From IMG/VR virus record IMGVR_UViG_3300042914_002167: a stretch of 64,000 nt of DNA, one strand, 5' to 3'. The DNA is from a virus. Below are positions 4,937 through 52,177 of the stretch, in pieces. Below the pieces are notes generated by a model that saw only the letters and a list, made by a program, of their open reading frames with translations, made no database searches and was not told the DNA's origin. Both the position numbers and the translations under genes were made by a program. Numbering within the stretch: the stretch's first letter is position 1; the number at the start of each line of letters is the position of its first letter.

Positions 4937-4940
4937 AATT

Positions 4941-6170: not shown

Positions 6171-6171
6171 A

Positions 6172-8404: not shown

Positions 8405-8431
8405 GTTTCCATCAATAAAAAAGGAGAATGA

Positions 8432-9150: not shown

Positions 9151-9158
9151 GTACAGCA

Positions 9159-9755: not shown

Positions 9756-9880
9756 AGGAAAAAAAGAAACTTTGTGCATTGGTTCTGCCTAAGCGTAGCA
9801 TACATAGAGATGTACATCATGAATCAAGTGGACAAGCAAAACATACATCGTAAATACATCGCAATATAAGGAGCATACAA

Positions 9881-10798
9881 ATGGCTATAAATTTTTCTGA
9901 TCTCAAGCGTTCACGTAGCAAAGACCTAGAGAAGTTGACTGCACAAGTCAGCAAACTGGGTGGAGAAGGCGAAAAGAAGTCTTATGAAGACACTCGTTTC
10001 TGGAAGCCTCAAGTGGACAAAGCAGGTAACGGTTTCGCAACAATCCGTTTTCTTCCTGCACCTGGTGGCGAAGACATGCCCTGGGTTCAAGTGTTCTCTC
10101 ACGGCTTTCAAGGCCCCACTGGGAAGTGGTACATTGAGAACTCTCTGACGACTCTCAACAAGAAGGATCCTGTCTCTGAGTACAACACTCAGCTATGGAA
10201 CTCCGGTGTTGAATCCGACAAAGAGATTGCGCGAAAGCAAAAGCGCAAGTTGCAGTACATCGCTAACGTCTACATTGTGAAGGATCCCGCAAATCCAGAC
10301 AATGAAGGCAAGGTGTTCTTGTTCAAGTTTGGCAAGAAGATTTTTGACAAGCTGAACGATATGATGAATCCTGAGTTTGAGGATGAGTCTCCCGTCAATC
10401 CATTTGACATGTGGGAAGGCGCAAACTTCAAGTTGAAGATTCGCAGGGTCGAGGGTTATCCTAACTACGACAAGAGTGAATTCGACAAGGCAGCACCTCT
10501 GTCTGAAGATGATGATGAACTTGAGCGTATCTGGAAGGCTGAACATAAGTTGCAAGAGTTCCTTGAAGAAAAGAACTTCAAGACTTATGATGAGTTGAAG
10601 ACCAAACTACATGATGTGCTTGAATTGGGTGAGTCTAGCCCAGTTGCAGCAAAGCCAGCGGCACCAATCTCTCGCAAGCCTGAGATTGTAAAGCCTGCAC
10701 CTGCGCAGCCTAAGAAGACTGTTGAAGACGCAAAGCCTTGGCGAGATGAAGACGACTCTGATGACATGAGTTACTTCGAAAAACTCGCTGAAGAGTAA
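9881..10798 (+). CDS. gp32: single-stranded DNA-binding protein gp32
   Basis: D.RFWKP..DK.GNG.A.IRFLP, HGFQ, WYIENSLTT, GKKIFDK, GANFKLKIR, NYDKSEF and an acidic tail. Confidence 0.96.
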   Translation: MAINFSDLKRSRSKDLEKLTAQVSKLGGEGEKKSYEDTRFWKPQVDKAGNGFATIRFLPAPGGEDMPWVQVFSHGFQGPTGKWYIENSLTTLNKKDPVSEYNTQLWNSGVESDKEIARKQKRKLQYIANVYIVKDPANPDNEGKVFLFKFGKKIFDKLNDMMNPEFEDESPVNPFDMWEGANFKLKIRRVEGYPNYDKSEFDKAAPLSEDDDELERIWKAEHKLQEFLEEKNFKTYDELKTKLHDVLELGESSPVAAKPAAPISRKPEIVKPAPAQPKKTVEDAKPWRDEDDSDDMSYFEKLAEE

Positions 10799-10829: not shown

Positions 10830-13800
10830 TCAGTCAATAAATGACATTCTTCTAAAACTTCCGTATAGAACAGGATCACTGTTTCTCGTATCCGTGCTGA
10901 TGATTGTTGTGCTGGATGTCACTGAGTTGTCAACAACATTTGTTGGTGCTACAATTGCTGTGCTGTTTACATTACCTCCACCACCAGCAGCATTATCCAT
11001 TGTATTGTTGTATGATTGCTGAGTTTGATTGTAATAGTCTGTGACTGGTGTTCCACTGGTTGCAGCAGCAGTAGCAGTGCCTCCAGTAGTTGCTGATGTT
11101 GCAGCAGTTGCAGTGCCAGTTCTTCTCTTCAAATCAGCAGCGTTAAGCCCCATAGGATTACCGTTTTCATCGTAGCCCACGACACCGTTTCCCCCTGGAA
11201 CAAACGCTTTATCCTTCATACTCCATACCATATCAGTAGATGTCGACATTTCGTTTTCTCCGCCACCCGAAGTGACAGTATATCCCGCTTTTTCACTAAA
11301 GACATTTTCATAAGTTGGAGTCAACAAACTAGCATCTGTTGATCCCTTATTTGCAAATTCAGCCAATTGACCTGTTGTAGTAAAATCTGAAACTGTAGAT
11401 AAAGCCGATTTCTGTATTTCTGATCCAGCCATACTCTTCATCACATCAATGAGAGGAGGATTCATCTTTGTGTCAACGAAATCTTTAATGGCTTGAGGGA
11501 AAGTACTTGAAAGTTCAAACTTCTGCCCGCTGTCATACACTTTAGCGTTGTTTTTATAAATCTCATAAATGTAATAACTTGGATCTTCATTGTCACTACC
11601 AATTGCAATTGCTACTTCAAAAGTATCTTTACTTCCTACATTCTTTGCATGATCTGTCAAGATTTTTTTTGCTGTCGCAGCAAGACCATCTGTAATCTTT
11701 GTGTAATCTGCACTCACATTCTTATCATCTTTATGCCAACTTCTATCAAATCCACCACCCTTTGTCTTAGAGAATCCTGATATGTGGGGAGTGCCTCCTT
11801 TGGACATCGAAGCAAAAGCCAAAAGTGCAAATGCTGCAACAATTGTGACTGGATTTGTTAGGAATGCACCCACCTGAGACATCATTGTTGAACCAGCAGC
11901 AGCAGTACCACCAGCAGCAGCAGTACCACCACTCATAGCAGAACCTATTGCACCTTCCAAAGCACCGGCGGCTGTCATACCACCAGCGCCAGCCGCACCA
12001 CCAGCAGCAGCAGTACCAGCAGCAGCCGCAGCACCACCAGCAGCAGCAGTACCACCACCAGCAGCAGCAACGGCAGATTCAACCAGAGCAGCATTGATAG
12101 GAGCGGAAGCTGTCGCTCCTATTTGTGCGCCAGTAATTCCAAGTTTACCCGCTAACCAAGGAGAAGCCGCAACTAGACTTTGAGCAGCACCAGTGCCACT
12201 GATAGCAGATTGAATTGCGGGAATTGCAAATTTTTTTATTCCATACTTTATGCCTTCACCCAAGACAAGATCCGCAATCATCTTCTTCTTCGGATCTTTT
12301 ATGTTCTTTGTCAATCCGCCGGCGATTTTGTATGTAGCATATGACGTCAGTAAGTTTCCGCCAAAAGACATTAGATTGTCAAAGAAACCTCCGCCTCCAC
12401 CACCACCTCCGCCTCCAAACCCTCCACCTCCACCACCTCCACCACCTCCACCAAAGCCACCACTGCCACCACCAAAGCCAGTGAACATGCGAAGCATAGA
12501 GTTTCCTAGACCGGAGATAGAGTCAATCATTCCACCAAAGAAACCTTGATCGTCTTTTAGAGTTGACTGATCCGCTAGAGTTGCGTTTGTTGTCTGCAAC
12601 TCTTGAGGCACTACATCATTAGCCTCTAAGAATGCACTCTGTTCTCTTTGTGTGATTGGTCTCGGTGCATTAGGTACAGAAGCGCCAGATGACCCTCTTT
12701 CAAATAGTTTACTTATACTAGCACCCGGAGCACCACCTTTTGTTGGACCAAATCCAAACAGACTACTCAAGCCTTGAGATACAAAATCACCACCTGCTGA
12801 CGCAATCTTATTAAAATTTATCTTTCCGTCTTTACCCAAAAGTTCAAGATTGGGGAAGAATTTATCCACTGTGCTCAGAAGTGTAGTTGAGCCAGTTGGC
12901 ACACCTGTCAGATTGAAGATGAGTTGTTCTCTTGCTAACTTACGCTGTTGCTTGTTGCCGGCGAAGTTGCCTAGAATCTGCCCCATGTTGAAACTTTGGA
13001 AAGTATTGCCAAAGAGCCCCTGCTTCGGTCCACCAAATCCAAGACCTCTTCCAACACTACCAGCAAACTTTTCTATGCCCAGCCCGAGTGCTTCACCTGC
13101 AACACCACCGTACGCTCTACCCACCTTCTTACCAAAAATCTTTGAAAGGAACTGAGTAGACTTCTGCCCTAGTTTTAGTTCTCTGCCTGCTACACCAGCC
13201 AAGAATCCGTCTTGTGCACCCTGAGCGCGTGAGACACCAGTCTGCCCTCTAGGGAAAAACAATTTGTTCAGTTCACTACTGATTAGATTCTTTGTGATGT
13301 TTCCTGTTGTTTTGATCAGGCGCTGAAAGCGATCATCAAAAAACTTTTGTCGTTTTTCTTCATCCGACAGTTTTCTTTTTGCAACCGAAACTCCTCTAGA
13401 TGTTGGAACTGCAACTCCCGCTATATTTCTAAATCCAATGGGTCCACCAGATTCGGCTTGTCTTGCAAACTTAGCCAGTTCTCTTGTGTGATCCGCAGTA
13501 GCTTCATTGCTATCTACAAGTCTTTCAGTGAGACTTTTTCCTGCCAGAGGAACCGTAGTGCCAGAACCACCACTCATAGCAGAAGCTATTGCACCTTCCA
13601 ATGCAGCAGTACTACCTCCTACCATTCCTCTACGAACTGGTTCAGGATCGCGATTGACGCCAACTAGTCTTATTAGACCACCTCTATTGGTATCAGAGTA
13701 ATTTGGTATTCGTGCTCTTTTTACAGCCACAGCAGCTAATATGGCAGCCCTCAGTTTTTCTTTTTTAGTTATTTTATCTTCAGGGCTCATTGGCTGTTGG

Positions 13801-15284
13801 GCTGCCATTCTTTCAGCGGTAGCTCTTTGACCAGTCTCTGAACCACGCCTAACTCCGTTTCTAGTAATTTGACTTTGGAGGTCACTTTGCTGCGCATCTA
13901 TTTCCTGCAACTCATATTGTCTAAGGAAAATCTTATCTTGTACATCCTTAAGACGTTTTTGTGTAATTTCTTTCTTAGCTGGATCAGTTTCTTTATTTAA
14001 TTGATCTTGTAATATTTTCTCTTGAGTTTCTAATCCGTAATTACCATATTTGTCCTTTTCACCAGGTCCATTTATTCCCCTTAGATCCAACATAGCAGTT
14101 CTTCTAGAAACCTCTAGTTTGTCTATACTTCTTCTTAAGTCACCTTCTTTCTGCGCACTCTGTATACCAGACTGCCTAAGCGACTCAAAAACTGCATCAA
14201 TAGAAGATTGATTAATCTTAGCTTTATTTCCTGCTACATCTTTATGGTAACTATCTCCTGTTCCCGGCATAGGCACGGCTGCCCATTTTTTAGCTAAATC
14301 AATCTGCGCCTGTTCTTTTGTTACGCTTTTGTCTCCCGCGAAATAACGCTTTGTTGTCTCGGGAAGAATTTTATTAAATAATTGATCTTGAAATGTTTTG
14401 TCAAATTTAGTTTTTGATGGATCTATGCCCATCTCTCGCACATTTTCAGCAAGAGTGCTTGGTATTACTTGATATCTACCCGCAGCAAACAATCCTCCTG
14501 GACCTTTATTTTCTTGTAAAGTCATGACCTGCTGTACAGTCATGGCTTCAAGGTTCATTGGTGGACCAGTCAATCCCGCTTTGGCTTTTCCATTCTCATC
14601 ACGCATATTGTATGCGTTATATCCGGCGGGACCAGCCTCACCTCCAGCAATCAAATCCCTGAGAGATTCCATATTTCCAGAAGGACCAGAAGAGGGTCCT
14701 GGGCGAGGACCTCCACCAGCAGCAGCCCTTGCAGCACCTAAAATCCCTGCTGCGCCAAGAGCAGCAAGAAACACTGGATGACGAATAAGTCTACCCGCGG
14801 CGCGGGCTAGCCCACCGAGCCCGCCGATCGGAATAATGTTTGTATCTCCACCGCCGCCTGCACCACCACCAGCACCTCCACCACCAGCTCCACCACCATC
14901 CAAAGAATCACGAATGTCCTCTAGAGTAGAGAGCATCTTCTCATCTAGAAGTCTCTTCTCGTTTGCATTCTCTTCAGCAAACTTATCATCACGCGCAATC
15001 TTCTCGCGCATGATTCTGGTATCTTTGGCGAGTTGAGTCAGCCACTTGTTAGAGTCACCGAGATACTGAGACTGTTTCTTCTCTTGCTTTGTTTGCTCTT
15101 TCTGTTCTTTCTCTTGTTTTTTGTTTGCTTCCTCAACCTCTTTTCTCACTTCGGAAATGAAGTCTGATGCGGATTGAATGAAACGTGGAACAATAGCTTG
15201 TTTGACACCTTGAACCAAGTCAGATGCAGTGCCCTTGACTGTATCAAGTGTCTTCTTAGCTAATACTTCTGAGAATTGAGCCAT
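10830..15284 (-). CDS. tape-measure/baseplate-hub-like protein with lysozyme-like domain
   Basis: 1484 aa, helical and Gly/Ala-rich; LIAGGE...YN and AAGRYQVIPSTL...FD...QD...W lysozyme-like motif; located downstream of gp26/gp51 (the gp29 position). Confidence 0.7.
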   Translation of the reverse strand: MAQFSEVLAKKTLDTVKGTASDLVQGVKQAIVPRFIQSASDFISEVRKEVEEANKKQEKEQKEQTKQEKKQSQYLGDSNKWLTQLAKDTRIMREKIARDDKFAEENANEKRLLDEKMLSTLEDIRDSLDGGGAGGGGAGGGAGGGGDTNIIPIGGLGGLARAAGRLIRHPVFLAALGAAGILGAARAAAGGGPRPGPSSGPSGNMESLRDLIAGGEAGPAGYNAYNMRDENGKAKAGLTGPPMNLEAMTVQQVMTLQENKGPGGLFAAGRYQVIPSTLAENVREMGIDPSKTKFDKTFQDQLFNKILPETTKRYFAGDKSVTKEQAQIDLAKKWAAVPMPGTGDSYHKDVAGNKAKINQSSIDAVFESLRQSGIQSAQKEGDLRRSIDKLEVSRRTAMLDLRGINGPGEKDKYGNYGLETQEKILQDQLNKETDPAKKEITQKRLKDVQDKIFLRQYELQEIDAQQSDLQSQITRNGVRRGSETGQRATAERMAAQQPMSPEDKITKKEKLRAAILAAVAVKRARIPNYSDTNRGGLIRLVGVNRDPEPVRRGMVGGSTAALEGAIASAMSGGSGTTVPLAGKSLTERLVDSNEATADHTRELAKFARQAESGGPIGFRNIAGVAVPTSRGVSVAKRKLSDEEKRQKFFDDRFQRLIKTTGNITKNLISSELNKLFFPRGQTGVSRAQGAQDGFLAGVAGRELKLGQKSTQFLSKIFGKKVGRAYGGVAGEALGLGIEKFAGSVGRGLGFGGPKQGLFGNTFQSFNMGQILGNFAGNKQQRKLAREQLIFNLTGVPTGSTTLLSTVDKFFPNLELLGKDGKINFNKIASAGGDFVSQGLSSLFGFGPTKGGAPGASISKLFERGSSGASVPNAPRPITQREQSAFLEANDVVPQELQTTNATLADQSTLKDDQGFFGGMIDSISGLGNSMLRMFTGFGGGSGGFGGGGGGGGGGGFGGGGGGGGGGFFDNLMSFGGNLLTSYATYKIAGGLTKNIKDPKKKMIADLVLGEGIKYGIKKFAIPAIQSAISGTGAAQSLVAASPWLAGKLGITGAQIGATASAPINAALVESAVAAAGGGTAAAGGAAAAAGTAAAGGAAGAGGMTAAGALEGAIGSAMSGGTAAAGGTAAAGSTMMSQVGAFLTNPVTIVAAFALLAFASMSKGGTPHISGFSKTKGGGFDRSWHKDDKNVSADYTKITDGLAATAKKILTDHAKNVGSKDTFEVAIAIGSDNEDPSYYIYEIYKNNAKVYDSGQKFELSSTFPQAIKDFVDTKMNPPLIDVMKSMAGSEIQKSALSTVSDFTTTGQLAEFANKGSTDASLLTPTYENVFSEKAGYTVTSGGGENEMSTSTDMVWSMKDKAFVPGGNGVVGYDENGNPMGLNAADLKRRTGTATAATSATTGGTATAAATSGTPVTDYYNQTQQSYNNTMDNAAGGGGNVNSTAIVAPTNVVDNSVTSSTTIISTDTRNSDPVLYGSFRRMSFID
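11893..12070. repeat. low-complexity tandem repeats (CCAGCAGCAGCAGTA-like) encoding GGTAAA
   Basis: Repeated ccagcagcagcagtacca units within the tape-measure-like gene. Confidence 0.7.
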
Positions 15285-40980: not shown

Positions 40981-41388
40981 ATGACAATTGCAAGAGACTT
41001 AGCAAACGTTGCATCGTTGATGGCGTCATCAAGTGCCAATGTTGTCTTTGATAACACTGTCATTTTGAGTGGCGGTGTTTCTAATGGTGTTATTTTTCTC
41101 GACGACTCAAAAACTGCAAGAACGACATCATCTTTCGTTTATGATTCTGCAAATACCAGAATAGGTATCAACACATCTACACCTAGAGCATCAATTGATA
41201 TAAATACGACAGATGGTATGATTCCTCCTTCTGGAACAACGGCACAAAGACCCAATGTTCCTATTGAAGGATTACTCAGATGGAACACAGAAACTAAGAC
41301 AACAGAACAATATACAGGTACAAAATGGACACCTATTGCGGGTGTTGATAAAAATGCAATATCATTCTTCTTTGCGTCTAGTTTTTAA
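40981..41388 (+). CDS. small virion fibre/adaptor protein
   Basis: MT.ARDLA, RIGINT.TP and P.GTTAQRP...G..RWN motifs; late promoter-like GATAAATA at 40944-40951. Confidence 0.65.
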   Translation: MTIARDLANVASLMASSSANVVFDNTVILSGGVSNGVIFLDDSKTARTTSSFVYDSANTRIGINTSTPRASIDINTTDGMIPPSGTTAQRPNVPIEGLLRWNTETKTTEQYTGTKWTPIAGVDKNAISFFFASSF

Positions 41389-41407
41389 TAAAGAATAGGA
41401 AAAAACA

Positions 41408-41731
41408 ATGCCTTCTGGAAGATTAGCAAAATCAAATCCTGCAGCGGAAACAATTACCACCGTTTACACTTCACCCGCGAATACATATGTTGTTTGTACC
41501 GCTGCGATGCTAAATTATGGCGATTCAACAACAACATTCAGGTTGTCTATACTAGAAAGTGCTAATAGTACACCTTCAGTATCAGACTTCATAGAGTATG
41601 ACACCGTTATTACATCAAAAAATGTCATAGAACGATCTGGTATTGTAATTGGCAATGGGCAAAAAATAGCCGTGTCGTCACCAACATCATCATTGATTGT
41701 CAATGTGTTTGGAATTGAAACTACACAATAA
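41408..41731 (+). CDS. small virion-associated beta protein
   Basis: TTVYT.P, N......RL, IEYD..I....ERSGIV and V.GIE motifs seen in T4-like fibre clusters. Confidence 0.6.
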   Translation: MPSGRLAKSNPAAETITTVYTSPANTYVVCTAAMLNYGDSTTTFRLSILESANSTPSVSDFIEYDTVITSKNVIERSGIVIGNGQKIAVSSPTSSLIVNVFGIETTQ

Positions 41732-41755
41732 AGAATTCAATAGGAGATAAAGAAC

Positions 41756-42340
41756 ATGGAAACAATTTTAGTTTACGAAAAAAATACAGGAATTATTCAA
41801 GGTGCTGTTGGTTTGCCGTCACTTGATTATTTTCACAAAAGTAGAATGAAGCCTGTTATGAATACTGTAAATCTATTAGATAATAATGGCGTTGCGGTTG
41901 GCACGGCTGAAGTTCCATTGATTGATCCTGAGTTCGGTCAAGTATTTATTGATGATCCATTACCAGAGCATCTTGGAATCATATATGTTTCTACTAAATC
42001 TGAGAGTGATCTTCTCTCTGAAGAGATTGAAGATTTTACTTTTTCAGAAAAAAATATTGAAGTGCTCAATTCTAATAATAGCATAACAATTACAGTCGCA
42101 AAAACTACACCAAAACTTAGAATTTTGAGAAAAATAAATGATGAAGGAAAAGTTGAATTGCAACCTGTAATGCGTAAAAGAATTCTATCCGAACATACAA
42201 ATGACGCAATTGCAGATTTGTCACTAGGCGATTATGTAATTGACGACACCGATTTTTCCGCATTTTATACTGAAATTTCTAATAAATATAAGATTGAAGT
42301 TAGTCAATCTGGTAAAAAAACTTTAGTTCTAAGAGGATAA
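41756..42340 (+). CDS. hypothetical protein (possible fibre chaperone)
   Basis: 194-aa ORF with GGAG SD; abuts the Cys-rich gene. Confidence 0.65.
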   Translation: METILVYEKNTGIIQGAVGLPSLDYFHKSRMKPVMNTVNLLDNNGVAVGTAEVPLIDPEFGQVFIDDPLPEHLGIIYVSTKSESDLLSEEIEDFTFSEKNIEVLNSNNSITITVAKTTPKLRILRKINDEGKVELQPVMRKRILSEHTNDAIADLSLGDYVIDDTDFSAFYTEISNKYKIEVSQSGKKTLVLRG

Positions 42341-42341
42341 T

Positions 42342-45300
42342 ATGGGCCGTTATATAGGTGTTCCTGAATCTCTGATAACGGAGATTGAAAATATTGTTCC
42401 AGTCGCAAGACGATTCAATAATCGGTGTCTATACACAACTCCCGGCACATATACATTCACTGTACCTGTTGGTGTAACTTGTATTAATGCTGTCGCGGTA
42501 GGTCCTGGTGGCACTCAATGCTCTATTTTAGAGTGCATGATTACATGCGGAACTATTGCTTGTTTATCAACATCTATGTGTGTCATAAAAAAGTTTCACG
42601 ATGACGCTGGATCTACATGCATGTTATCATCTGTTGCGCGAGATCCTGTTGAAAATATATGCACATGTGCATTTGAAGTCTGTAGGTACCTGTGTTCTAC
42701 TACATTAAAGGACCGTTGGTCAATATATATTGACCAAGGCACCTCCGGTTGCTACATGTGCGCAGGAGGAAAAACAGATTTCACTAATCAGACGATGAAG
42801 TTTTCTTATTTTCCGTCAGGTCCTGGTGGAGGATATACAGAAAAAGCTGCAAATACTGTAGCTGGATGCACATATACCGTAATTGTTGGGCAGAATTGCT
42901 CTGTGGGTGGATTCTCATGTGTAAGTGGTCAGAACGTAAGCATCTGCGCGACAGGACCCATCATGGTAAGTTGCGCTGGTTTGGTAGATGCAAATAATTC
43001 TACATTTTATAATATTAGCGGCACATGGCGGACACCAGATGCATGGAATTACATGGACACATGCAGCATTTCCACAAGCTGCAGCGGCACCACGCCGTGG
43101 TGCTGTTTTGCGTGTTTTAGTAAATGTGGCAGTCGGGGCGAACTCGCATATTGTATAGAATCTCGCTGGTGTGCATGTGTAGCCCAGGGGCAAGGCTTTG
43201 GTGGAGATATTAATCGTACTGGAGGATTTTGTTGCCTATCATACACAACGCAATTATTAACATCTAATCCTTGCTATCCCTGTGGAGTTCTTACAGGATG
43301 TTGCTCAAGTGTCCTTGGGACAGGATCTATTTTTGCATGCGGCGCCGCCGCATGCACTACTACAGGAGGATATACAACAAACAATTGTTGTGGTGCCTCG
43401 GTATTTTGTTGCATACTTTGCACACCTTTTGTTAGCTCTTGCGGCACGGGTAGTATAGGAACATTTATTTTATCCATGTGCATGTATAAGCGCATTACGC
43501 AATACTGCACACCTCTGGACGTCATCAGCGGCGCCTGCACAGCCTGCATATTCCAAAATAATTGCGCGTATTTCACTTTCTCACAATCATCAAGAGAAAC
43601 AGGAAATACTATTTCATGCATAACTAATTTTAACTTCAATTCTCCTGGAAATTTTAATCCTTATTGTAGCATCAAAGCAGGATGCACTGGTTGCATATCT
43701 ACGACTTTGTGTCACTGCACATGTATGCTTGTATGTGATATTACTTGTCCTGGCAGTGTGTCCGGCGGCAGTGCTTCTAGACAAACGATTTGCGGTGGAT
43801 GGCACACATTCATTTATGATTGGAAGGGTATAACTCCTGAAACTTCTGGTGGATGGTGTGGTAATCCATACTACTGTATGAATTGTGTATTGGTTGGTAA
43901 TACATGTAATCGTTTCAAATTTGGAGGAAGTTCTGCAGGTAATTTTTATGGTAATGGCGTTTCTGCCCTTAACGATTCTAATGTATATACTTTGTGCTGC
44001 AATAGAAATTTTGGACACTGTGACACAACTCCAGCAACAGTCGCTACAGTTTGTAATATGAATGGGCTTGCGAATATTACGTGTATGGCAGCGCAGGTGA
44101 CGACACCAGAAGCAACTACCATGTGCCTCGGGCCCTGTGCTTTTATGCCATTCTTGTACAACATATCTACTTGGTGGCGCCACGACACCGGCAACTGCTG
44201 TACTTATTCACTAGGTACACCATCACTAAGTTGTCAATGCAAAACGCCAATTCTTTATGGTATTCCTGTATATGAATGTTCAACATCGTGTAATTGTGAT
44301 ATGTATTCTTTCCCCACAACAGGAACATGTACTGTTCTGGACATGTTTAGGGTACATCCATTGCCTGGAATTTCTAGACATTCATCTATTTCAAATCACA
44401 AAAGCAATGCATATCATGATATGTTTATTAATTGGGCTGGTAATGTTATGTTCAATAACTTGCAAGCTGGTGCGGGGTGTACATGTTTTGCAACAGCTTG
44501 CACTTGCTGCAATAGATTTTCGCCTTATTACCTCAATGCAGGCTTCAACGGACTGTGCTTTGCACCATGTGGCGAGTTCAGGATTGTGCCTGCAAAAACT
44601 TGCATGAAATATTATTCAACAGTTGCTTGCGTTCCTTTAGATTGCTGTGGTTCATGTGGTCCAAATCCACTTGTAACTGTTGTGCCACTTACAAGTGGCA
44701 CTAGAGATTTTGTGTCATATAATTTCTTTTGCAATTTGTGCACAACAGTCATGGTGCAAACTGCGGGATATAATTGCAGATATTATGGGCTTAATTGTTA
44801 CTGGCCATGTGCATTGTGTTATGATTTCTGTAATACTACATGCAGAGTCAACAATTTGAATCCTTTATTGAATTTGTACGATTACATTTGCTCAAACCCA
44901 GAAGATCGTTCAACAGGATCTACACCAACATGCGTTGGCATTAATACTCCATTCTGTCATTTGTTGACATTTGGTTCCATGATACCATTGAATACTAACA
45001 GCATTCTAACTAATTTTTATTTCCCTCAAGCAACGACGGTGTGTTGTGTTTATAAATCTTCAGACAAAATTACTGTAAATGATGCTCTTTATAATGCGCA
45101 ATACGTACACAATTTTGGATATTGTTTGATTAACACTCGGGTTAACCCAGCCGTATGGCAGGGCGGCGGGTGCGGTGTAGCCTGTCACACCTGGAATAGG
45201 ATTGTTGCACTATCTCAAATTTGCTTTGACCAGTGTAAAGTATCTGGTATATGTAATTGCAGTTTGGCTGCATGCTGTTATTATGCTCAGGGTGGCGCTG

Positions 45301-46424
45301 GTATTGGAACAGCAGGCATTTGGGGAGAAGGTACTGTTTCATGTAATCTAACTTCTTCGGGTGGTGGTAACATTAAGTGCCTATCTCACTGCTTAAATCT
45401 TCAAGCGACATATTGCAATTGCTCTATGGGTTGCTGTTGGTTGCAGAATTTACCTTGTGCAGCTGGCTGGGGAATGAATTCTACCCTAGCGCAAATAACA
45501 ATATGTGACACATTAAATTGTGGTTCAGGTGCAATTATTTCACCAAATTGGACAGCATATCAATGCTGCGCCGGTGTATTATGTGTACCCGCTCCATGCG
45601 GCAATGCAACTATACCCAATCAAGCGGGTGTTCCTGGCACTGGGCATCTTGCATCAATTACTGTGTTGTGTGGCGGTATTAACTACAGTACTTCAACAAA
45701 TACTTGTGCGCAATTAACTCCTTGTATGTGTGTGGCGTCAACTTATAGTAGTACACCTTGGCGATCAGAAATTGACCGCTTGCTGACCACTCTACCCTGC
45801 TGTAACGCGCCGGTCTGGTGTAATAACGGGTGTCCATTCACATTTACTGCTGCTGGACCGCTGTGTGGTTTACCAGTAATTACTCCTGCAATGTGCGTGT
45901 GTGTTGTCACACCATTTTCTAATTATTCCAATGTGGTTGCAACATATGCAGAAGGCTCTGGCGGTGGATCAAAGACAGGAATTCCGTCTTGTGCCAAGTA
46001 TTCATCAATCACCGAATCTTCATCAATTGTGTCTGTATCGCCAGCTAGAGGTGGTAGAGGCAATGAAGCTCCATATGATCCGTATTACTTTTCGTATCCT
46101 GGAATTAGCGCAAGAATTAATACACCTAAATCTCCAGCGACATACGTTGGAGATAATGTGTCAGGTTGCTCATGGTTTGATACAAATCAGATTTTAGGAT
46201 CAGGCGGTAATGGCACATTTTGTTCTGAAAAGTACGCTTGTATCTTTGTTCAGGGTCCAGGTCCTGGAGGCGGTGGCGCAAACGGGATAACAGCAACTGG
46301 TACAACTTTCGCTACTGGTGGTGTTCTGGGAGGAGGTGCTGGCTGCTGCGGCGCAGGTGGTGCTGGAGGTGGTGCTGGATGGAATGGTACACCAGGCAAT
46401 GGTATGGTAGTAATCTACTGGTAA
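42342..46424 (+). CDS. giant cysteine-rich fibre-like protein
   Basis: 1360 aa, about 141 Cys by manual count. N-terminal TPGTYTFTVP.GVT.I.AVAVG.GG and C-terminal GGGGA...G.GMVVIYW match Gly-rich phage fibre tips. Confidence 0.8.
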   Translation: MGRYIGVPESLITEIENIVPVARRFNNRCLYTTPGTYTFTVPVGVTCINAVAVGPGGTQCSILECMITCGTIACLSTSMCVIKKFHDDAGSTCMLSSVARDPVENICTCAFEVCRYLCSTTLKDRWSIYIDQGTSGCYMCAGGKTDFTNQTMKFSYFPSGPGGGYTEKAANTVAGCTYTVIVGQNCSVGGFSCVSGQNVSICATGPIMVSCAGLVDANNSTFYNISGTWRTPDAWNYMDTCSISTSCSGTTPWCCFACFSKCGSRGELAYCIESRWCACVAQGQGFGGDINRTGGFCCLSYTTQLLTSNPCYPCGVLTGCCSSVLGTGSIFACGAAACTTTGGYTTNNCCGASVFCCILCTPFVSSCGTGSIGTFILSMCMYKRITQYCTPLDVISGACTACIFQNNCAYFTFSQSSRETGNTISCITNFNFNSPGNFNPYCSIKAGCTGCISTTLCHCTCMLVCDITCPGSVSGGSASRQTICGGWHTFIYDWKGITPETSGGWCGNPYYCMNCVLVGNTCNRFKFGGSSAGNFYGNGVSALNDSNVYTLCCNRNFGHCDTTPATVATVCNMNGLANITCMAAQVTTPEATTMCLGPCAFMPFLYNISTWWRHDTGNCCTYSLGTPSLSCQCKTPILYGIPVYECSTSCNCDMYSFPTTGTCTVLDMFRVHPLPGISRHSSISNHKSNAYHDMFINWAGNVMFNNLQAGAGCTCFATACTCCNRFSPYYLNAGFNGLCFAPCGEFRIVPAKTCMKYYSTVACVPLDCCGSCGPNPLVTVVPLTSGTRDFVSYNFFCNLCTTVMVQTAGYNCRYYGLNCYWPCALCYDFCNTTCRVNNLNPLLNLYDYICSNPEDRSTGSTPTCVGINTPFCHLLTFGSMIPLNTNSILTNFYFPQATTVCCVYKSSDKITVNDALYNAQYVHNFGYCLINTRVNPAVWQGGGCGVACHTWNRIVALSQICFDQCKVSGICNCSLAACCYYAQGGAGIGTAGIWGEGTVSCNLTSSGGGNIKCLSHCLNLQATYCNCSMGCCWLQNLPCAAGWGMNSTLAQITICDTLNCGSGAIISPNWTAYQCCAGVLCVPAPCGNATIPNQAGVPGTGHLASITVLCGGINYSTSTNTCAQLTPCMCVASTYSSTPWRSEIDRLLTTLPCCNAPVWCNNGCPFTFTAAGPLCGLPVITPAMCVCVVTPFSNYSNVVATYAEGSGGGSKTGIPSCAKYSSITESSSIVSVSPARGGRGNEAPYDPYYFSYPGISARINTPKSPATYVGDNVSGCSWFDTNQILGSGGNGTFCSEKYACIFVQGPGPGGGGANGITATGTTFATGGVLGGGAGCCGAGGAGGGAGWNGTPGNGMVVIYW

Positions 46425-46442
46425 TCTACTAGAGTACATAAA

Positions 46443-46470
46443 ATGTCAAGGGAGATATCTCCCTTGACAT
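46443..46470. repeat. perfect 28-bp palindrome
   Basis: ATGTCAAGGGAGAT|ATCTCCCTTGACAT. Confidence 0.95.
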
Positions 46471-46492
46471 GCGATGGCAGATGCTATATAAT
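46464..46492 (+). promoter_or_regulatory. consensus sigma70 promoter
   Basis: TTGACA (46464-46469), 17 bp, TATAAT (46487-46492); GGAG SD before ATG 46544. Confidence 0.88.
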
Positions 46493-46543
46493 GTATGAAA
46501 CGAAAAACACGTTTTTCGTGCTTTAATCATTTTTGGAGTTATT

Positions 46544-47485
46544 ATGAAAAAAAGAAAAGTGTTTTATATTGACGGCGGCGCTGGGCGCGTGATCGCAGCA
46601 ATTCCAGCATTAAAAAAATACGCAAAGTTGCATCCTTCCGATGATTGGGGTGTTGTAATTGCCGGATGGGATAATCTTTTGTGGGGTATTCCTGAGCTAC
46701 AAGAGCGCACATATAGCACAGACACGAAAGGATTGTTCAAGAATTTCTTGATTGATGCTGACATAGAAACACCAGAACCATATCGTGTCAATGGATATTT
46801 TCAACAAAAACTTTCACTAGCAGAAGCGTTTGATTTTGAAATCAATCGCACCGATGATCACTCCAATCTCGGCGTACCCCAGATGATTCTCAGCAAGGCT
46901 GAAGAGAAACAAGCATCTAATGTTGTGGCTGATGTTAAACAACAGCAGGGTAAAAATATCACTTTAGTGATTCAACCCTTTGGGCGATCAGCCCGTCTTG
47001 ATCGCACAGACATCATTGATGATAGTTCGCGTTCACTAGAACCTCAAGCATATCTTTCACTCGCAAAGAAACTCTCAACAAAGTATAATCTGATTTTCTT
47101 TGGAGAGCAACAACTATTCATGCAAGCAGATACATATACATTCAAGCTACAAACAGACTTGCGCGGCTGGGCAGCAATTGTTGAATGTGCAGACTATTTT
47201 GTTGGCGTTGATTCTGTCGGGCAACATATGGCAAGAGCATTCAACAAACCAGGAACAGTTGTTGTCGGATCAACATTCCCGATAAATACTACATATCCCG
47301 ATTACTTCCAATTGTATGAGAAGCGAGGTATCGAAAAAGTTTATTCACCAATTCGAATTAGCGGATTGGATGGACATCTAGCAGATCGTCTAAATGACCG
47401 TTGCATGGACTTTGATGAAAAAGAAGTTGATGAACTATTCATGAAGATTGTCGGTGACATTGAAAAGAAAGTAAAGGTAAAGTAA
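46544..47485 (+). CDS. GT9-like (ADP-heptose-type) glycosyltransferase
   Basis: GGAGRVI.AIPAL N-terminal motif, IQPFG, and LRGWAAIVECADYFVGVDSVGQHMARAFNKPGTVVVGST (GT9 G.DSG..H.A.A...P signature). Confidence 0.75.
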   Translation: MKKRKVFYIDGGAGRVIAAIPALKKYAKLHPSDDWGVVIAGWDNLLWGIPELQERTYSTDTKGLFKNFLIDADIETPEPYRVNGYFQQKLSLAEAFDFEINRTDDHSNLGVPQMILSKAEEKQASNVVADVKQQQGKNITLVIQPFGRSARLDRTDIIDDSSRSLEPQAYLSLAKKLSTKYNLIFFGEQQLFMQADTYTFKLQTDLRGWAAIVECADYFVGVDSVGQHMARAFNKPGTVVVGSTFPINTTYPDYFQLYEKRGIEKVYSPIRISGLDGHLADRLNDRCMDFDEKEVDELFMKIVGDIEKKVKVK

Positions 47486-47487
47486 AC

Positions 47488-49275
47488 ATGGCATATAATA
47501 TTCTAGCGATTAATCCTGGGCACAATGGCTCTGCTGCATTGTTATCTGATGGAAAAATTAAATACTATGTCGAGGAAGAACGTCTAACCCGCATGAAGTA
47601 TGATGGCAATCCATTCAAAGCAATGATGGATATCATGGGCAAATGGCAAGTAGATGAATTGGTCATTGCGGGCACAGGTCAAGAAACTCATAGTCTTCCT
47701 TGGACAGGTGAAGATTCTTACACCGCACTTGTGCGTAAGTTTTATCCTCAAGTCAAAGTAACAAAGCTAGGGCACGAACATCACCTAGGGCATGCTGCAT
47801 GCGCATTCTACAATTCGGGGTTTGAAGAAGCCATTGCTATCATTGTAGATGGTGCAGGCTCTAAACACAAAGTCAAAGTAGAACTTGAAGAGGGTAAAGA
47901 AGGCGAGACTCCAGAACTTGAAGGCTATGAAGTTGAATCGGTGTATGTGTGTAAGTATCCGCACGAATTCGGTGCAGTATTCAAGTCATATGGATTCAAT
48001 ACTGGCGGATATCAACAATACAAAAATATGCTCTTTGATGATACTGCTGGGATTACAAAGACATATGAAGGAGTTTCTCAATATCTAGGATTTGGATTTA
48101 TCGAAGCAGGTAAGACTATGGGTCTTGCTCCATACGGTAAAGAAGACAAGAACATTCCTAATCTCTTTAATAGGGGCCGTGGTTCTAAGGACATGTTCAT
48201 TCCAGCATATCCTGCAGGATCTTATGTAGACCAAAATCGCAATCCTCAATTCAAGCAAGACGGCGATCCCGGAGCATGGCATACTGATCCGTCAAAACTG
48301 CCCGACATTGCTAAAAATCTTGCATATGCGGTCCAGAGGGATAGTCAAGCACTCTTGCTTGGTTTGATTCAGCAGGCTGTTCAGGTAACCGGTATTAAGA
48401 ATGTGGTGATTGCTGGTGGTTATGGATTGAACTGTGTAGCTAACTACTTCTTGCGCAAGAATCTACCAAAAGACATCAATCTATATTGTGAACCAATTGC
48501 ACACGATGGCGGTACCGCTATTGGTGCAGCTAAACTCTTCTGGCATCTAGGCACTAATTCTACAGAGATTGATCCCCAGACTTCCCTCTATTACGGTCCA
48601 GAGTATAATCCCGAATTCGTTCAGAATGTGTTAGATGCCCACAAAGATCACATAACAGTTGAACCTGCTGATGCTGCTAAGATTGCTCAAATGATTGCAG
48701 ATAAGGAAATTGTGTCTATTTTCCAGGGTCGTTCGGAAGCTGGTCCTCGTGCATTGGGCAACAGATCAATCATCTATGATCCTCGCGATCCTAATGGTAA
48801 AGATCATGTTAATGTAGTCAAGGGAAGAGAGTGGTTCCGCCCATTCGCTGGCTCAGTATTAAAAGAAGATGCTGCTGACTGGTTTGATCTTGCTGGTATG
48901 CAAGAAACTCCACACATGATGTATGCTGTAAATGTTGCCGCCGACAAGATTAAGAAGATTCCGGCTGTGTGTCACGTTGATGATACTTGTCGGGTTCAGA
49001 CTGTGACAGAAGAAAACAACAAGCATTACTATGAATTGATCAAAGCATTCAAAGAGATCACAGGAGTTCCTGTTCTGTTCAACACATCTTTCAATCTTGC
49101 TGGCGATCCATTGGTGGAAACTCCTATTGATGCACTGATAACTATGTACAGATCAAAACTTAAGTATCTGTATATGCCTGAGTTGGGTGTATTGGTGACT
49201 AAGACGATGCCTGATCCAGAACCACCAAAAGAACCTATAGAGGACGAAGCGAAAGATGATACAGTTACCGGTTAA
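47488..49275 (+). CDS. carbamoyltransferase (NodU/CmcH/TobZ family)
   Basis: EEERL.R.K, HH..HA, DG.G, GKTMGLAPYG, GG..LNCVAN, D.G.AIGAA, E.GPRALGNRS, RE.FRPFA, HVD.T.R.QTV and NTSFN. Confidence 0.94.
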   Translation: MAYNILAINPGHNGSAALLSDGKIKYYVEEERLTRMKYDGNPFKAMMDIMGKWQVDELVIAGTGQETHSLPWTGEDSYTALVRKFYPQVKVTKLGHEHHLGHAACAFYNSGFEEAIAIIVDGAGSKHKVKVELEEGKEGETPELEGYEVESVYVCKYPHEFGAVFKSYGFNTGGYQQYKNMLFDDTAGITKTYEGVSQYLGFGFIEAGKTMGLAPYGKEDKNIPNLFNRGRGSKDMFIPAYPAGSYVDQNRNPQFKQDGDPGAWHTDPSKLPDIAKNLAYAVQRDSQALLLGLIQQAVQVTGIKNVVIAGGYGLNCVANYFLRKNLPKDINLYCEPIAHDGGTAIGAAKLFWHLGTNSTEIDPQTSLYYGPEYNPEFVQNVLDAHKDHITVEPADAAKIAQMIADKEIVSIFQGRSEAGPRALGNRSIIYDPRDPNGKDHVNVVKGREWFRPFAGSVLKEDAADWFDLAGMQETPHMMYAVNVAADKIKKIPAVCHVDDTCRVQTVTEENNKHYYELIKAFKEITGVPVLFNTSFNLAGDPLVETPIDALITMYRSKLKYLYMPELGVLVTKTMPDPEPPKEPIEDEAKDDTVTG

Positions 49276-49570
49276 TCTCAGATTGATTGGTAAGCGTAAA
49301 GTTGCGATGGTGCCCTCTCAGAGGGCTACCGAAACAGAGTCTGGGATTCAACTTGCAGTCATCAATACAAAGCATGAATACAAGCGATGCATCGTAATTC
49401 AAGTGACTGACGATATCACTGACATTAGAGTTGGTGATGAAGTACTCGCGAATTGGAGCAAATCCAAAACGGGTACGCTGAAAGGATGGAGCGAAGAGTT
49501 GCGATCTAGCTATGATATCATGGTACACCTTCTAGACGAAGACGATATCTTAGCGATATACGAAGACTAA
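49256..49570 (+). CDS. GroES-like co-chaperonin
   Basis: ETESGIQL mobile-loop-like motif, V....I.VGDEVL and E.DILAI; 104 aa. Confidence 0.6.
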   Translation: MIQLPVNLRLIGKRKVAMVPSQRATETESGIQLAVINTKHEYKRCIVIQVTDDITDIRVGDEVLANWSKSKTGTLKGWSEELRSSYDIMVHLLDEDDILAIYED

Positions 49571-49598
49571 AAAAAAGGGGCTTTAAGCCCCTTTTTTT
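49569..49598. terminator. bidirectional intrinsic terminator
   Basis: A8-GGGGCT-TTA-AGCCCC-T7 between convergent operons. Confidence 0.88.
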
Positions 49599-50511
49599 AT
49601 TGCGCGAAGAATTCTTTGACTGATCTAAATGGAGTTGTCACTCCTGCGTTTCGCAGTTTCGTTAAGTCTGCACATGTCCAGTATTGATATGAGTTTTTGT
49701 ATTGATCTGGGAATGGTACTGTCACGATGTTAGCGCCTTGATTTTTCGCGACAATCATTGCAACTTCTTTGAAACTGATTGGATTACCAGTGCCGATGTT
49801 GAATATACCACTATTCATTCTATTGAATGCTAAGTCAAGTTTTGCTTGCACCACATCATCTACATATACAAAGTCACGGAAGATATTTTCTGATCCTTCA
49901 AACAGTTGAATTTGATTAGTTTCTTTTGCTTGAATTTTGAATTTTGTGATTGGACTTGCTTGATCACCCTTATGGTATTCATTTGATCCATATACATTGA
50001 AGTATCGTAAGCCCTGGACATTAAATTCCATGTTTGGGAAATAATCAGAATTTATAATCTTCTTGACTTTATTGTCAAAAAGAAGTTTACTGAATGCATA
50101 TGGTGTTTGAGGATTCGTAGGAGCAATCTCAGGTATTCTAACATTTGGAGGGACATTACCATATACACTTGCACTAGATGCATATTGAAATGGGATTTTG
50201 TTTATAAACGCCTGACCAAATAACTTTTCGGAGAATTGATAGTTGCGTTTCATTATAAGAGAACCATTCATTTCTCTAGTAGAAGATATTGCTCCTTCAT
50301 GAAATATGAACTTCAGTGATTTCCAGTCGTCAAAACGACCAAAAAATTCATCTACATCATAATAATTTGAAAACTCACATGAATTCAAATTTAACATTTT
50401 AGCACCATTGGTCAAATCATCTACTACAATAATATCAGTTATGCCTCTAGAGTTGAGTATGCGTATCAGATTTGAACCAATAAAGCCGAAGCCGCCTGTA
50501 ACTAAAATCAT
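49597..50511 (-). CDS. hldD: ADP-L-glycero-D-manno-heptose 6-epimerase
   Basis: ILVTGG.GFIGSN, VDDL..G.K, HEGA.SST, YASSA.VYG, Y..SK.LFD, LRYFNVYG..E.HKG.QAS and YQ..T.ADL..LR.AG. Confidence 0.92.
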   Translation of the reverse strand: MILVTGGFGFIGSNLIRILNSRGITDIIVVDDLTNGAKMLNLNSCEFSNYYDVDEFFGRFDDWKSLKFIFHEGAISSTREMNGSLIMKRNYQFSEKLFGQAFINKIPFQYASSASVYGNVPPNVRIPEIAPTNPQTPYAFSKLLFDNKVKKIINSDYFPNMEFNVQGLRYFNVYGSNEYHKGDQASPITKFKIQAKETNQIQLFEGSENIFRDFVYVDDVVQAKLDLAFNRMNSGIFNIGTGNPISFKEVAMIVAKNQGANIVTVPFPDQYKNSYQYWTCADLTKLRNAGVTTPFRSVKEFFAQ

Positions 50512-51242
50512 ATGGATTGCGCAAATGCTAATAAATTATCAAACACATTTGTCTTTGATTTTAGAACGCGATTTGCGAATGTGTTTAATTCTGTGAGAGT
50601 TTTTTGCCCGTTGCCAGTGAGCACCAGTATTGGTTTTGCACCTGCTCTATCCGCTGCTTTCAGATCAGCGAGTTTATCTCCAACATACCATCCTTGCTTC
50701 CAATTGACTTTCTGTTCATCCCGCGCACGATTGAACATTCCAATATTAGGCTTTGCAAATATATCGTTTTTCAACGAAGATGTTGAATAATACAGACCAT
50801 CAATACTGAAAATGCCAGCTTCACCAAACATCCTCATCATTCCATTATGTACTTCATCAACTTGCTCAATTGTTTGTTTTTTTTCATAGATTCCACTCTG
50901 ATTTGTCAATATAGTAAGACGATGACCCTTCAAGCGAAGCATACGAATTGCTTCAAGACTGCCTGGAATAGGTTTCACTTGACTGAAATCAGTGATGTAT
51001 GTTCCGATATCTTCAATGATAGTTCCATCACGTTCTAGCCCAACAATGTTTTTAGGAAATACAGTAGGCCACTGGCGTTGGGCTTCTTGCATTTTAGCCT
51101 GCTGCTGTTGAATATCACTTGAAAACTGATACTGTTGATTTCCTTGATATCCGCCAGACGAATAATTGCTACTTGCATATGTTGGTATCTGCGTTTGTGG
51201 TATTGCTTGGGGCATTACGACAGAAGAATTGAATCGTCCCAT
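50508..51242 (-). CDS. gmhB: heptose 1,7-bisphosphate phosphatase-like HAD protein (atypical motif I, Q-rich N-terminal extension)
   Basis: LERDGTI (canonical DRDG), TNQSGI, KP..GM and VGD...D..AA..AG..P.LV.TG.G; adjacent to hldD. Confidence 0.78.
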   Translation of the reverse strand: MGRFNSSVVMPQAIPQTQIPTYASSNYSSGGYQGNQQYQFSSDIQQQQAKMQEAQRQWPTVFPKNIVGLERDGTIIEDIGTYITDFSQVKPIPGSLEAIRMLRLKGHRLTILTNQSGIYEKKQTIEQVDEVHNGMMRMFGEAGIFSIDGLYYSTSSLKNDIFAKPNIGMFNRARDEQKVNWKQGWYVGDKLADLKAADRAGAKPILVLTGNGQKTLTELNTFANRVLKSKTNVFDNLLAFAQSI

Positions 51243-51320
51243 TTATCTATCTCCCGAGTTTTTCGTAAAAAATACTTCACATGACCATGATTTACTATCA
51301 ACGATTTTAAGTCTTTCCAT
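51243..51320 (-). pseudogene. 25-aa ORF, probable truncated remnant of a cupin-type sugar isomerase gene
   Basis: GGAG SD + MERLKIVDSKSWSCEVFFTKNSGDR*, with the stop abutting the gmhB ATG. Resembles the 'K.W..E' N-terminus of phage cupins found in heptose clusters. Confidence 0.4.
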
Positions 51321-51350
51321 ATAATTCTCCATACCAATTTAAGCAAAAAC

Positions 51351-51379
51351 ATAATAACATATTTAGCAGCACCAGTCAA
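51351..51379 (-). promoter_or_regulatory. sigma70-type promoter for gmhB-hldD
   Basis: Minus strand: TTGACT (51379-51374), 17 bp, TG-extended TATTAT (51356-51351). Confidence 0.7.
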
Positions 51380-51433
51380 GACAATTTTTTGATATGATAA
51401 ATAGGGAAGTAACTCCAAAAGGAACTTCTCAAA

Positions 51434-52177
51434 ATGGCAAAACCAACAACAAGAGAGCAGTTGAAAGCATATTGTCTGCGTCAACTCGGTGCACCTGTAG
51501 TTGAGATCAACGTGGACGATGAACAGGTAGAAGATTGTATTGACGATGCGATTCAGTATTATCATGACTATCACTTTGATGGTACCGAAAAAGTCTACCT
51601 TGCTCATCAGATAACAGAGACAGATGTATCAAATAGATACATTGACATTCCAGAGTCTGTCATTGGTGTTGTAAACATCTTTGACATTGGTGATTCGTTC
51701 TCTACCAACAACCTCTTCAACATCAGATACCAGATCGCATTGAATGATCTCTTTGCATTCAACTATGGTCCATTTGCACCATACTACATGGCGTTACAGA
51801 ATGTAGCACTTGCTGAAGAGTTATTTGTTGGAAGGCAGTCACTTCGTTTCAATCGGCACACTAACAAACTCCATATTGAAATGTCGTGGAGTGAAAAGGT
51901 CGTTGTCGGTGAGTACATCATCGTAGAAGGTTACGCTGCATTAGATCCAGAAACATACTCAGATGTTTACAATGATCGTTGGTTGAAGAGATATTCCACT
52001 GCACTCATAAAGAAACAATGGGGCACTAACCTCAAGAAGTTTGAGGGTCTTCAGATGCCAGGTGGAATCACATTCAACGGGCAGAAGATTTGGGATGAAG
52101 CTACAGATGAAATCACTCAGCTAGAAACTGAGATGATCAATTCTTATAGTTTACCGGTTTCCGATATGATTGGATGA
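51434..52177 (+). CDS. gp13: neck protein gp13
   Basis: P.TRE.LK.YCLR.LGAPV.EINV...QVED, YH.DG and W.K.Y..AL.K.QWG.NL.KF.G...PGG.T.NG. Confidence 0.94.
   Translation: MAKPTTREQLKAYCLRQLGAPVVEINVDDEQVEDCIDDAIQYYHDYHFDGTEKVYLAHQITETDVSNRYIDIPESVIGVVNIFDIGDSFSTNNLFNIRYQIALNDLFAFNYGPFAPYYMALQNVALAEELFVGRQSLRFNRHTNKLHIEMSWSEKVVVGEYIIVEGYAALDPETYSDVYNDRWLKRYSTALIKKQWGTNLKKFEGLQMPGGITFNGQKIWDEATDEITQLETEMINSYSLPVSDMIG

Follow-up and report, generated by a model that had tools for sequence, protein, structure and literature searches.

The 64,000-nucleotide stretch of viral DNA analysed here (IMG/VR record IMGVR_UViG_3300042914_002167; hereafter the window) has the gene content of a T4-like marine myovirus. 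In the slot that runs from its fibre genes to the neck gene gp13 lies a module in which a giant cysteine-rich protein is followed by genes for a glycosyltransferase family 9 (GT9)-fold enzyme and a TobZ/NodU-type carbamoyltransferase, which converge on an operon encoding two enzymes of the ADP-heptose pathway (Table 1). The original prediction, made from the letters of the window alone, had placed every open reading frame (ORF) exactly; the module is real, and the transferase, the carbamoyltransferase, HldD and the GmhB-like protein are what it had named them. On our best reading, the module represents one instance of a 'fibre-tip plus sugar-tailoring' set conserved among marine T4-like myoviruses, and we tentatively propose that heptose is attached to the phage's own fibre tip and subsequently O-carbamoylated.

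Table 1 Features of the module and of its surroundings in the window
Feature	Position	Strand	Family or remark
Baseplate wedge and hub genes	22.8-30.4 kb		
2001-aa DUF4815 protein, then DUF7483 fibre	after baseplate genes, to 40.3 kb		
135-aa fibre-shaft-like protein	40981..41388	+	PHROG 1417 (8e-22)
107-aa fibre-module protein	41408..41731	+	C-terminus of tail-fibre PHROG 693 (2.5e-8)
194-aa ORF	41756..42340	+	Abuts start of giant (42342); no family
1360-aa giant, 141 Cys	42342..46424	+	Probably expanded TNF-like/glycine-rich fibre tip
12-bp stem-loop	46443..46470	+	After giant's stop codon; overlaps -35 hexamer
Predicted sigma70-type promoter	46464..46492	+	TTGACA-17-TATAAT, 12/12, 17-bp spacer
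GT9-fold glycosyltransferase, probable heptosyltransferase, 313 aa	46544..47485	+	PHROG 8954 (1e-87)
TobZ/NodU-type O-carbamoyltransferase, 595 aa	47488..49275	+	PF16861 and PF02543
104-aa GroES-like ORF	49256..49570	+	Sub-threshold Cpn10
HldD, ADP-glyceromanno-heptose 6-epimerase, 304 aa	49597..50511	-	TIGR02197
GmhB-like HAD-IIIA phosphatase, 244 aa, 64-aa N-terminal extension	50508..51242	-	
130-aa ORF	51215-51607	-	Overlaps gp13 start; hydrophobic, low complexity
Predicted sigma70-like promoter, gmhB-hldD operon	51351..51379	-	TTGACT-17-TATTAT, 10/12 plus TG extension
Neck genes gp13-15	51.4-53.7 kb		Terminase and tail sheath next

The giant contains exactly 141 cysteines (10.4%), in agreement with the approximate count given earlier, together with 11.5% glycine, 10.5% threonine and few charged residues. 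Of the 245 cysteines encoded by the window's 54 called genes it holds 141 (58%); the average in the remaining genes is 0.56%. Alignable homologues were found at only three related loci, L011 (1458 aa), L087 (1257 aa) and L007 (partial), and their termini are conserved (27-36% identity at the N-terminus and 58-60% at the C-terminus) around a hypervariable core of about 1000 residues, as expected of a receptor-binding protein. Within the core, glycine positions are conserved above locally shuffled controls; cysteine positions are conserved at 46-48%, the level of the shuffled controls. In the giants it is cysteine abundance, not cysteine position, that is conserved: cysteine makes up 9-11% of every giant lineage while the positions drift. 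The cysteines of the window's giant are randomly spaced, with no periodicity seen, and the protein lacks internal repeats and is not enriched in CC, CxC or CxxC, which argues against metal-cluster or knottin-like arrays; both were rejected. A tblastn search with the giant against phages, with the low-complexity filter on, gave zero matches.

Relatives of the phage carry short cysteine-rich proteins in the same syntenic slot as the giant. These form one family (82 dereplicated members, mean identity 32%) of 260-360 aa, with 8-12% cysteine and about 16% glycine; 11 conserved cysteine columns account for about one-third of their roughly 29 cysteines, and the remaining two-thirds or so lie at variable positions. 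One member reaches the gathering score of Pfam Gly_rich_2. An AlphaFold (AF2) model of a short tip (predicted local distance difference test (pLDDT) score 78) has as its best fold match the tail fibre gp24 of the cyanophage Pam3 (7YPX; probability 1.00, template-modelling (TM) score 0.51-0.53), followed by the Bxb1 tail tip and the TNF-like/glycine-rich (TG) domains of ALK/LTK. Because Pam3 gp24 is the top structural match, the short cysteine-rich proteins are fibre tips by modelled fold. Pam3 gp24 forms a trimeric fibre in which a TNF-like domain is combined with a polyglycine-II lattice, and it resembles the gp38 adhesin of Salmonella phage S16 (PMC9942802). The short tips share the architecture of these proteins, with an N-terminal segment for attachment, a beta-sandwich and motifs rich in glycine. 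Cysteines matter to Pam3 virions as well, as disulfides confirmed by mass spectrometry (PMC9942802), although gp24 itself is not cysteine-rich; the giant of the window is five times longer and related to the family at the level of motifs only. A tblastn search with the 758-aa protein of AG-345-O18 returned only a match to itself.

The giant is linked to the short-tip family by its syntenic slot, its composition and collinear motifs: the 'GGGY...AGCTYTVxVG' block of the giants and their terminal 'CCG.GG...VVIYW' are collinear with the short-tip profile. In hhalign, the giants matched this profile with 77% probability over 27 columns (giant residues 157-183) and the C-terminus of the giant did so with 20% probability. 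The giant scored 9.2 bits against Gly_rich_2 (PF21722; cut-off 24.3), and its match to the short-tip hidden Markov model was removed by the composition-bias correction. We regard the giant as most likely a virion protein and, from its sequence, as probably a greatly expanded, cysteine-laden relative of the TNF-like/glycine-rich fibre tips. At L015, the closest relative of the window by transferase sequence, the transferase lies downstream of a 2063-aa protein of intermediate composition (3774-9965; 4.9% or about 100 cysteines, 16% asparagine).

The enzyme encoded downstream of the giant has the fold of a GT9 transferase. With an AF2 model built from 46 sequences (pLDDT 95.6), Foldseek ranked TibC first, then WaaF, a Veillonella GT9 enzyme (3TOV) and WaaC; the TibC chains 4RAP and 4RB4 took ranks 1-3 and 6-10 (E = 1e-9). 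The GT-B structures 1PSW, 3TOV, 2H1H, 2GT1 and 6DFE were all matched with probability 1.00 and TM scores of up to 0.61, and the top solved matches are all users of ADP-heptose. Across the 46 sequences G11, G12 and G14 are invariant and R15 is present in at least 90%, in a subfamily motif [D/N]GGAGR; Q144-P145-x-G147 and the C-terminal sugar-nucleotide motif D223-S224-x-G226-Q227-H228 are likewise invariant. So are E78, D97 and D159, one of which may act as an alternative catalytic base. Members of the family are acidic proteins free of membrane segments. We found no genuine cellular homologue in 185,579 species genomes: all 13 genome matches are phage contigs in bins of metagenome-assembled genomes (MAGs), and a cellular home for the family was rejected.

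The carbamoyltransferase is matched over its full length by PF16861 (4e-61; 205.8 bits) and PF02543 (1e-22; 81.5 bits) and aligns with TobZ (3VEN; E = 1e-60), including the Kae1-like metal motifs HxxSAA and HHLxHAA; against the NodU equivalog model it scores 146 bits, below the threshold of 1000. Its solved relatives are all O-carbamoyltransferases that act on hydroxyl groups and do not include HypF; this lends no support to S-carbamoylation after the manner of HypF, which had been suggested. In the convergent operon, HldD passes its equivalog threshold (TIGR02197, 303 bits against 274.6). The GmhB-like protein scores above the HAD-IIIA cut-off (TIGR01662, 84.9 bits against 44.6) and below that of its best model, NF006506 (117 bits against 178), and shares 40% identity with the ORF next after the carbamoyltransferase in AG-345-O18.

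Whether such genes keep company elsewhere was examined from the transferase outwards. An alignment-based scan of IMG/VR yielded at least 438 relatives, from which 80 loci were fetched, dereplicated at 90% transferase identity and scored for cysteine-rich proteins (at least 7% cysteine); a single-sequence scan of the same database found nothing. Transferase and carbamoyltransferase genes are neighbours in P-SSM2, P-SSM5, S-CAM1, S-CAM3, S-SSM7, S-SSM6a, Sf-FS3 and several single-cell viral contigs. A common order (long tail fibre, small ORFs, one to three cysteine-rich tips, an ORF of about 240 aa, transferase, carbamoyltransferase, heptose-pathway genes, the epimerase on the opposite strand, then another fibre) is found in P-SSM2, S-CAM1, S-CAM3, S-SSM7, AG-345-O18, AG-345-P14 and 13 mis-binned MAG contigs (L087-L099). 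The last are phage and represent binning contamination, the bins including Polynucleobacter, Woesearchaeota, Methanobacteriota and Marinimicrobia; one of them, L087, repeats the whole architecture of the window.

A cysteine-rich protein lies within 7 kb at 39 of the 40 dereplicated loci with an adjacent transferase/carbamoyltransferase pair, compared with about 5 of the 12 loci that have no adjacent carbamoyltransferase. Among ORFs within 5 kb upstream, 120 of 346 reach 7% cysteine, as against 5 of 888 elsewhere, and these five likewise belong to the module; conversely, all 21 phage records with the short-tip family also carry the transferase. The proposal that this GT9 subfamily and the carbamoyltransferase would be found together beside cysteine-rich fibre genes is thus borne out far above background. 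Adjacency persists in L050, where the cassette is inverted, and at loci that differ in the number and size of their tips; it also persists where the transferases share less than 40% (about 36-40%) identity. Members of PHROG 8954 also sit within the tail-fibre modules of two unrelated phages, the Vibrio N4-like podovirus SBP1 and the small Aeromonas myovirus HJ05. The persistence of the cassette, its transferase in the tail modules of unrelated phages and the 13 MAG contigs from unrelated 'taxa' add independence to the association.

Heptose-pathway genes lie near the transferase at 36 of the 46 dereplicated loci, including 8 of the 12 without a carbamoyltransferase, and at none of the three loci with a carbamoyltransferase but no transferase; in L087, the twin of the window, a heptose kinase and an adenylyltransferase are also present. 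Because the heptose genes track the transferase, ADP-heptose is supported as the donor.

Several loci depart from this arrangement. In HJ05 and SBP1 the PHROG 8954 members (L103 6998-7921; L104 7001-7735) lie between tail-fibre and tail genes, and no carbamoyltransferase or heptose gene was found near them. At the loci of a clade without an adjacent carbamoyltransferase (L019-L028, L030 and L035-L036), the transferase follows arrays of 390-455-aa proteins that are rich in glycine, serine and threonine, contain 2-6% cysteine and have RCC1-like C-termini; other enzymes are also present. S-TIM4 has no GT9-like gene, and its carbamoyltransferase (L100 7992-10742) converges on a 387-aa tip with 33% glycine and 0.5% cysteine (ORF41), the last gene of its fibre cluster. 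In S-RIM44 and HTVC008M, members of the carbamoyltransferase family are found away from fibres.

The cyanomyovirus gene clusters T4-GC 302-308 (PSSM2_307-313 in P-SSM2; also in S-SSM7, S-CAM1 and S-CAM3) constitute an orthologous cassette, with transferases 37-41% and carbamoyltransferases 44-48% identical to those of the window and the same place after fibre and cysteine-rich genes. The window differs in having one 1360-aa giant rather than two or three tips of 260-360 aa, and only HldD and GmhB, without HldA, HldC, GmhA, the cupin or the 2-oxoglutarate (2OG) oxygenase. T4-GC 304-308 have been published as host 'LPS genes' (LPS, lipopolysaccharide), possibly stuffer DNA (Sullivan et al., PMC3037559). 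The published work that we found does not tie the cassette to tips, and a literature search on cyanophage carbamoyltransferase or heptose and on cysteine-rich virion proteins turned up no description of the module.

As to expression, the original prediction had put a sigma70-driven operon within 120 bp of the giant, and a perfect sigma70-type promoter does lie in the 119-bp gap between the giant and the transferase. P-SSM2, L043, L076, L081, L084 and others have a promoter of this type (11-12/12) at the equivalent position; many relatives instead carry the T4-late motif TATAAATA 28-56 bp upstream of the transferase. The promoter of the gmhB-hldD operon lies within a divergent gap of about 190 bp shared with gp13. 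In the window, TATAAATA occurs eight times, always on the + strand, against 2.8 expected, and no copy directly precedes the giant or the transferase. The view that the enzymes are made early therefore fits the window, where both operons have sigma70-type promoters, as well as P-SSM2 and several lineages, and fails for the many relatives with a T4-late promoter. The stem-loop after the giant folds as RNA with -20.5 kcal/mol (z = -5.7), and no U-tract follows it on the + strand. A second hairpin (46500-46519, 8-bp stem) lies where the transferase mRNA is predicted to begin, and the two hairpins bracket the promoter.

In its wider setting, the phage is a deep-branching relative of the Kyanoviridae, since its large terminase is only about 50% identical to the closest cyanomyovirus counterparts; megablast of the module region against phages gave zero matches. 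Among the small ORFs before the giant, the 135-aa protein matches many virion and fibre PHROGs besides PHROG 1417 over residues 69-122, and its C-terminal half recurs in 15 related loci. Homologues of the 107-aa protein (33 loci, 37-49% identity) always lie upstream of cysteine-rich genes. Nothing supports calling the 194-aa ORF chaperone-like, as was done earlier: neither Pfam nor PHROG matches it, and it resembles the syntenic 188-aa ORF of L087 only weakly (23% over 94 aa). The supposed GroES-like protein of 104 aa is no conserved part of the module: it stays below the Cpn10 threshold (17.9 bits against 21.1), matches PHROG 3188 at 2e-4 and has no homologue in any related locus. The 130-aa ORF at the start of gp13 is probably spurious, its sole match being the antisense strand of gp13 in L037. 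Farther away, a second sugar-nucleotide cluster beside phoH (3899-6170) encodes a GDP-mannose 4,6-dehydratase (PF16363, 3e-143) and a sugar C-methyltransferase (PF08484, 7e-41), and the ORFs that follow, to 9755, have no assignment. On the - strand, 10830-15284 encodes a 1484-aa protein with zero cysteines, 14% glycine and no Pfam match, the compositional opposite of the giant.

In the scheme that we tentatively favour, the phage would make or top up ADP-L-glycero-beta-D-manno-heptose, the convergent operon contributing two steps (GmhB and HldD), and a host-type promoter would drive the two soluble enzymes encoded downstream of the giant. The GT9-fold enzyme would then move heptose to the fibre-tip protein in the cytoplasm, by default through an O-link to serine or threonine as with TibC and Aah, and the TobZ-type enzyme would O-carbamoylate the attached heptose, as at the second heptose (HepII) of the Pseudomonas LPS core. 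What the analysis establishes is the identity of the genes, the folds, the synteny and the co-occurrence; donor sugar, acceptor, linkage and sequence of steps are inferred.

Both halves of this scheme have precedents. TibC and Aah, which act on the adhesins TibA and AIDA-I, are cytoplasmic GT-B enzymes that use ADP-heptose and have their adhesin encoded alongside, and among solved structures TibC is closest in fold to the transferase of the window. These BAHT enzymes have a cysteine-ligated iron finger and form a dodecamer; the 46 phage transferases have no invariant or nearly invariant cysteine and therefore no iron finger. Other differences are a sequence identity of 10-12%, a phage enzyme about 90 residues shorter (313 against about 380-390 aa), a presumed acceptor that is a TNF-like/glycine-rich tip rather than a beta-helical autotransporter, and the added carbamoyltransferase; activity on the phage side is predicted from sequence and model.

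For the second half, 7-O-carbamoylation of HepII in the Pseudomonas LPS core is ascribed to WapO (PMC8005017), and because this is a precedent for carbamoylated heptose, that sugar is the likeliest substrate of the phage carbamoyltransferase. Pseudomonas WaaC/WaaF and the putative WapO (PA5005) likewise pair a GT9-fold heptosyltransferase with a carbamoyltransferase of the NodU/TobZ family, and the proposed phage product is also a carbamoylated heptose (7-O-carbamoyl-HepII there; PMC8005017). The acceptor in Pseudomonas, however, is Kdo2-lipid A (Kdo, 3-deoxy-D-manno-oct-2-ulosonic acid) at the cell membrane, whereas the phage enzymes are soluble, phage-encoded and linked to fibre genes, and the cyanophage relatives infect hosts whose LPS lacks heptose.

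A number of observations weigh against tip decoration. The 64-kb window encodes only HldD and GmhB, with GmhA and the kinase/adenylyltransferase absent. The transferase falls below the thresholds of Pfam GT9 (PF01075, 19.5 bits against 22, residues 203-249) and TIGR02201 (22.9 bits against 170), and its 46-sequence profile found no solved GT9 enzyme in the PDB at E <= 10. The loop after strand 1, the presumed counterpart of the WaaC loop with the catalytic aspartate (Asp13), has the sequence G11-G12-A13-G14-R15 and is free of acidic residues. Homology between giant and tips is at the motif level only, and the enzymes of the window have early-type promoters while its fibre genes look late. On the transferase tree, the loci without a carbamoyltransferase form a single clade and about three changes suffice for the state 'carbamoyltransferase plus cysteine-rich'; since T4-like gene order is also generally conservative, few independent events underlie the association. 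Published proteomes of virions come from S-SM1, S-PM2 and Syn9, none of which carries the cassette (PMC3037559).

The main rival places the same chemistry on the host. Carbamoyl-heptose would be added early to a surface glycoconjugate (LPS or another receptor), excluding superinfecting phages or stopping progeny from adsorbing to debris, and the adjacency of enzymes and binder would reflect co-adaptation of receptor-binding genes with receptor masking. The classical substrate of GT9 enzymes is the LPS core, and WaaF and WaaC are among the top fold matches of the transferase; the sigma70 promoters of the two enzyme operons, one perfect and the other nearly so, the second sugar-nucleotide cluster near phoH and the published designation of T4-GC 304-308 as LPS genes (PMC3037559) point the same way. 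We nevertheless consider this reading unlikely. The LPS of marine Synechococcus is devoid of both heptose and Kdo (PMC4515613), and the hosts of the cyanophage relatives therefore do not offer the canonical GT9 acceptor; flippase, ligase and membrane protein are all absent from the module, whose transferase is acidic and soluble; a T4-late promoter drives the transferase in many relatives; and PHROG 8954 is found within tail modules of unrelated phages. Whether the neighbouring genes are functionally joined at all can also be questioned, as linkage by descent in a shared variable island would leave the enzymes free to act on a soluble heptose nucleotide, another virion protein or DNA. The small number of independent evolutionary events, the carbamoyltransferases away from fibres in S-RIM44 and HTVC008M and the 'stuffer DNA' idea of Sullivan et al. 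(PMC3037559) would suit such a history. It is made improbable by an adjacency that has outlasted the divergence of the transferase, the L050 inversion and the changes in tip number and size, and neither a hydroxymethylase nor any other gene for DNA modification lies near the module in the window.

Two further readings concern the transferase itself and its acceptor residue. It is quite improbable that the GT9-fold protein is a pseudo-enzyme, an assembly factor or a structural partner of the fibre tip, as its failure at GT9 sequence thresholds, the N-terminal loop without the usual acidic residue and its presence in HJ05 and SBP1 tail modules without any sugar genes could suggest: its D-S-x-G-Q-H motif is invariant, its gene is strongly linked to ADP-heptose genes, and the hosts of HJ05 and SBP1 make ADP-heptose themselves. 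A role for the cysteines as acceptors, central to the original prediction, is very doubtful. Here the GT9 variant or the carbamoyltransferase would put S-heptose or S-carbamoyl on tip thiols; in a specific and equally doubtful form, the arginine-bearing GT9 variant would be an S-glycosyltransferase that places heptose, later carbamoylated, on many of the roughly 141 tip cysteines. High cysteine content does go with the transferase/carbamoyltransferase pair, an arginine replaces the acidic residue that, by WaaC numbering, would be expected in the N-terminal catalytic loop, about two-thirds of short-tip cysteines lie at non-conserved positions, and all giants hold 9-11% cysteine while its positions drift. 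Yet the same enzymes also stand beside cysteine-poor tips (0.5% in S-TIM4 ORF41, 4.9% in the upstream protein of L015), cysteine positions in the giant core match shuffled controls and their spacing is random, the solved carbamoyltransferase relatives all modify hydroxyls, and we know of no precedent for S-linked heptose. Nor is the claim supported that modification explains how 141 thiols are tolerated, given the disulfides in the virions of the cyanophage Pam3 (PMC9942802); the cysteines of the giant probably cross-link as disulfides once the virion leaves the cell, rather than serve as acceptors.

The hyper-cysteine tips are unusual in themselves: about 10% cysteine is kept across cores that cannot be aligned, in proteomes that otherwise contain about 0.6%. 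To this the window adds a giant form of the tip and evidence that cysteine abundance, rather than position, is conserved. Should the cysteines after all carry S-heptose, S-linked heptose would be seen for the first time, as would a virion protein with enzymatically capped thiols, and there would be an explanation for lineages keeping the abundance of cysteine but not its position. If, as we tentatively favour, the tips are glycosylated and the heptose O-carbamoylated, they would represent the first phage protein heptosylation and the first carbamoylated sugar on a receptor-binding protein. The cyanophage 'LPS genes', or possible stuffer DNA, would then be a virion-decoration system in hundreds of ocean phage genomes, and this would bear on host range, adsorption and virion stability in viruses that rank among the sea's most abundant.

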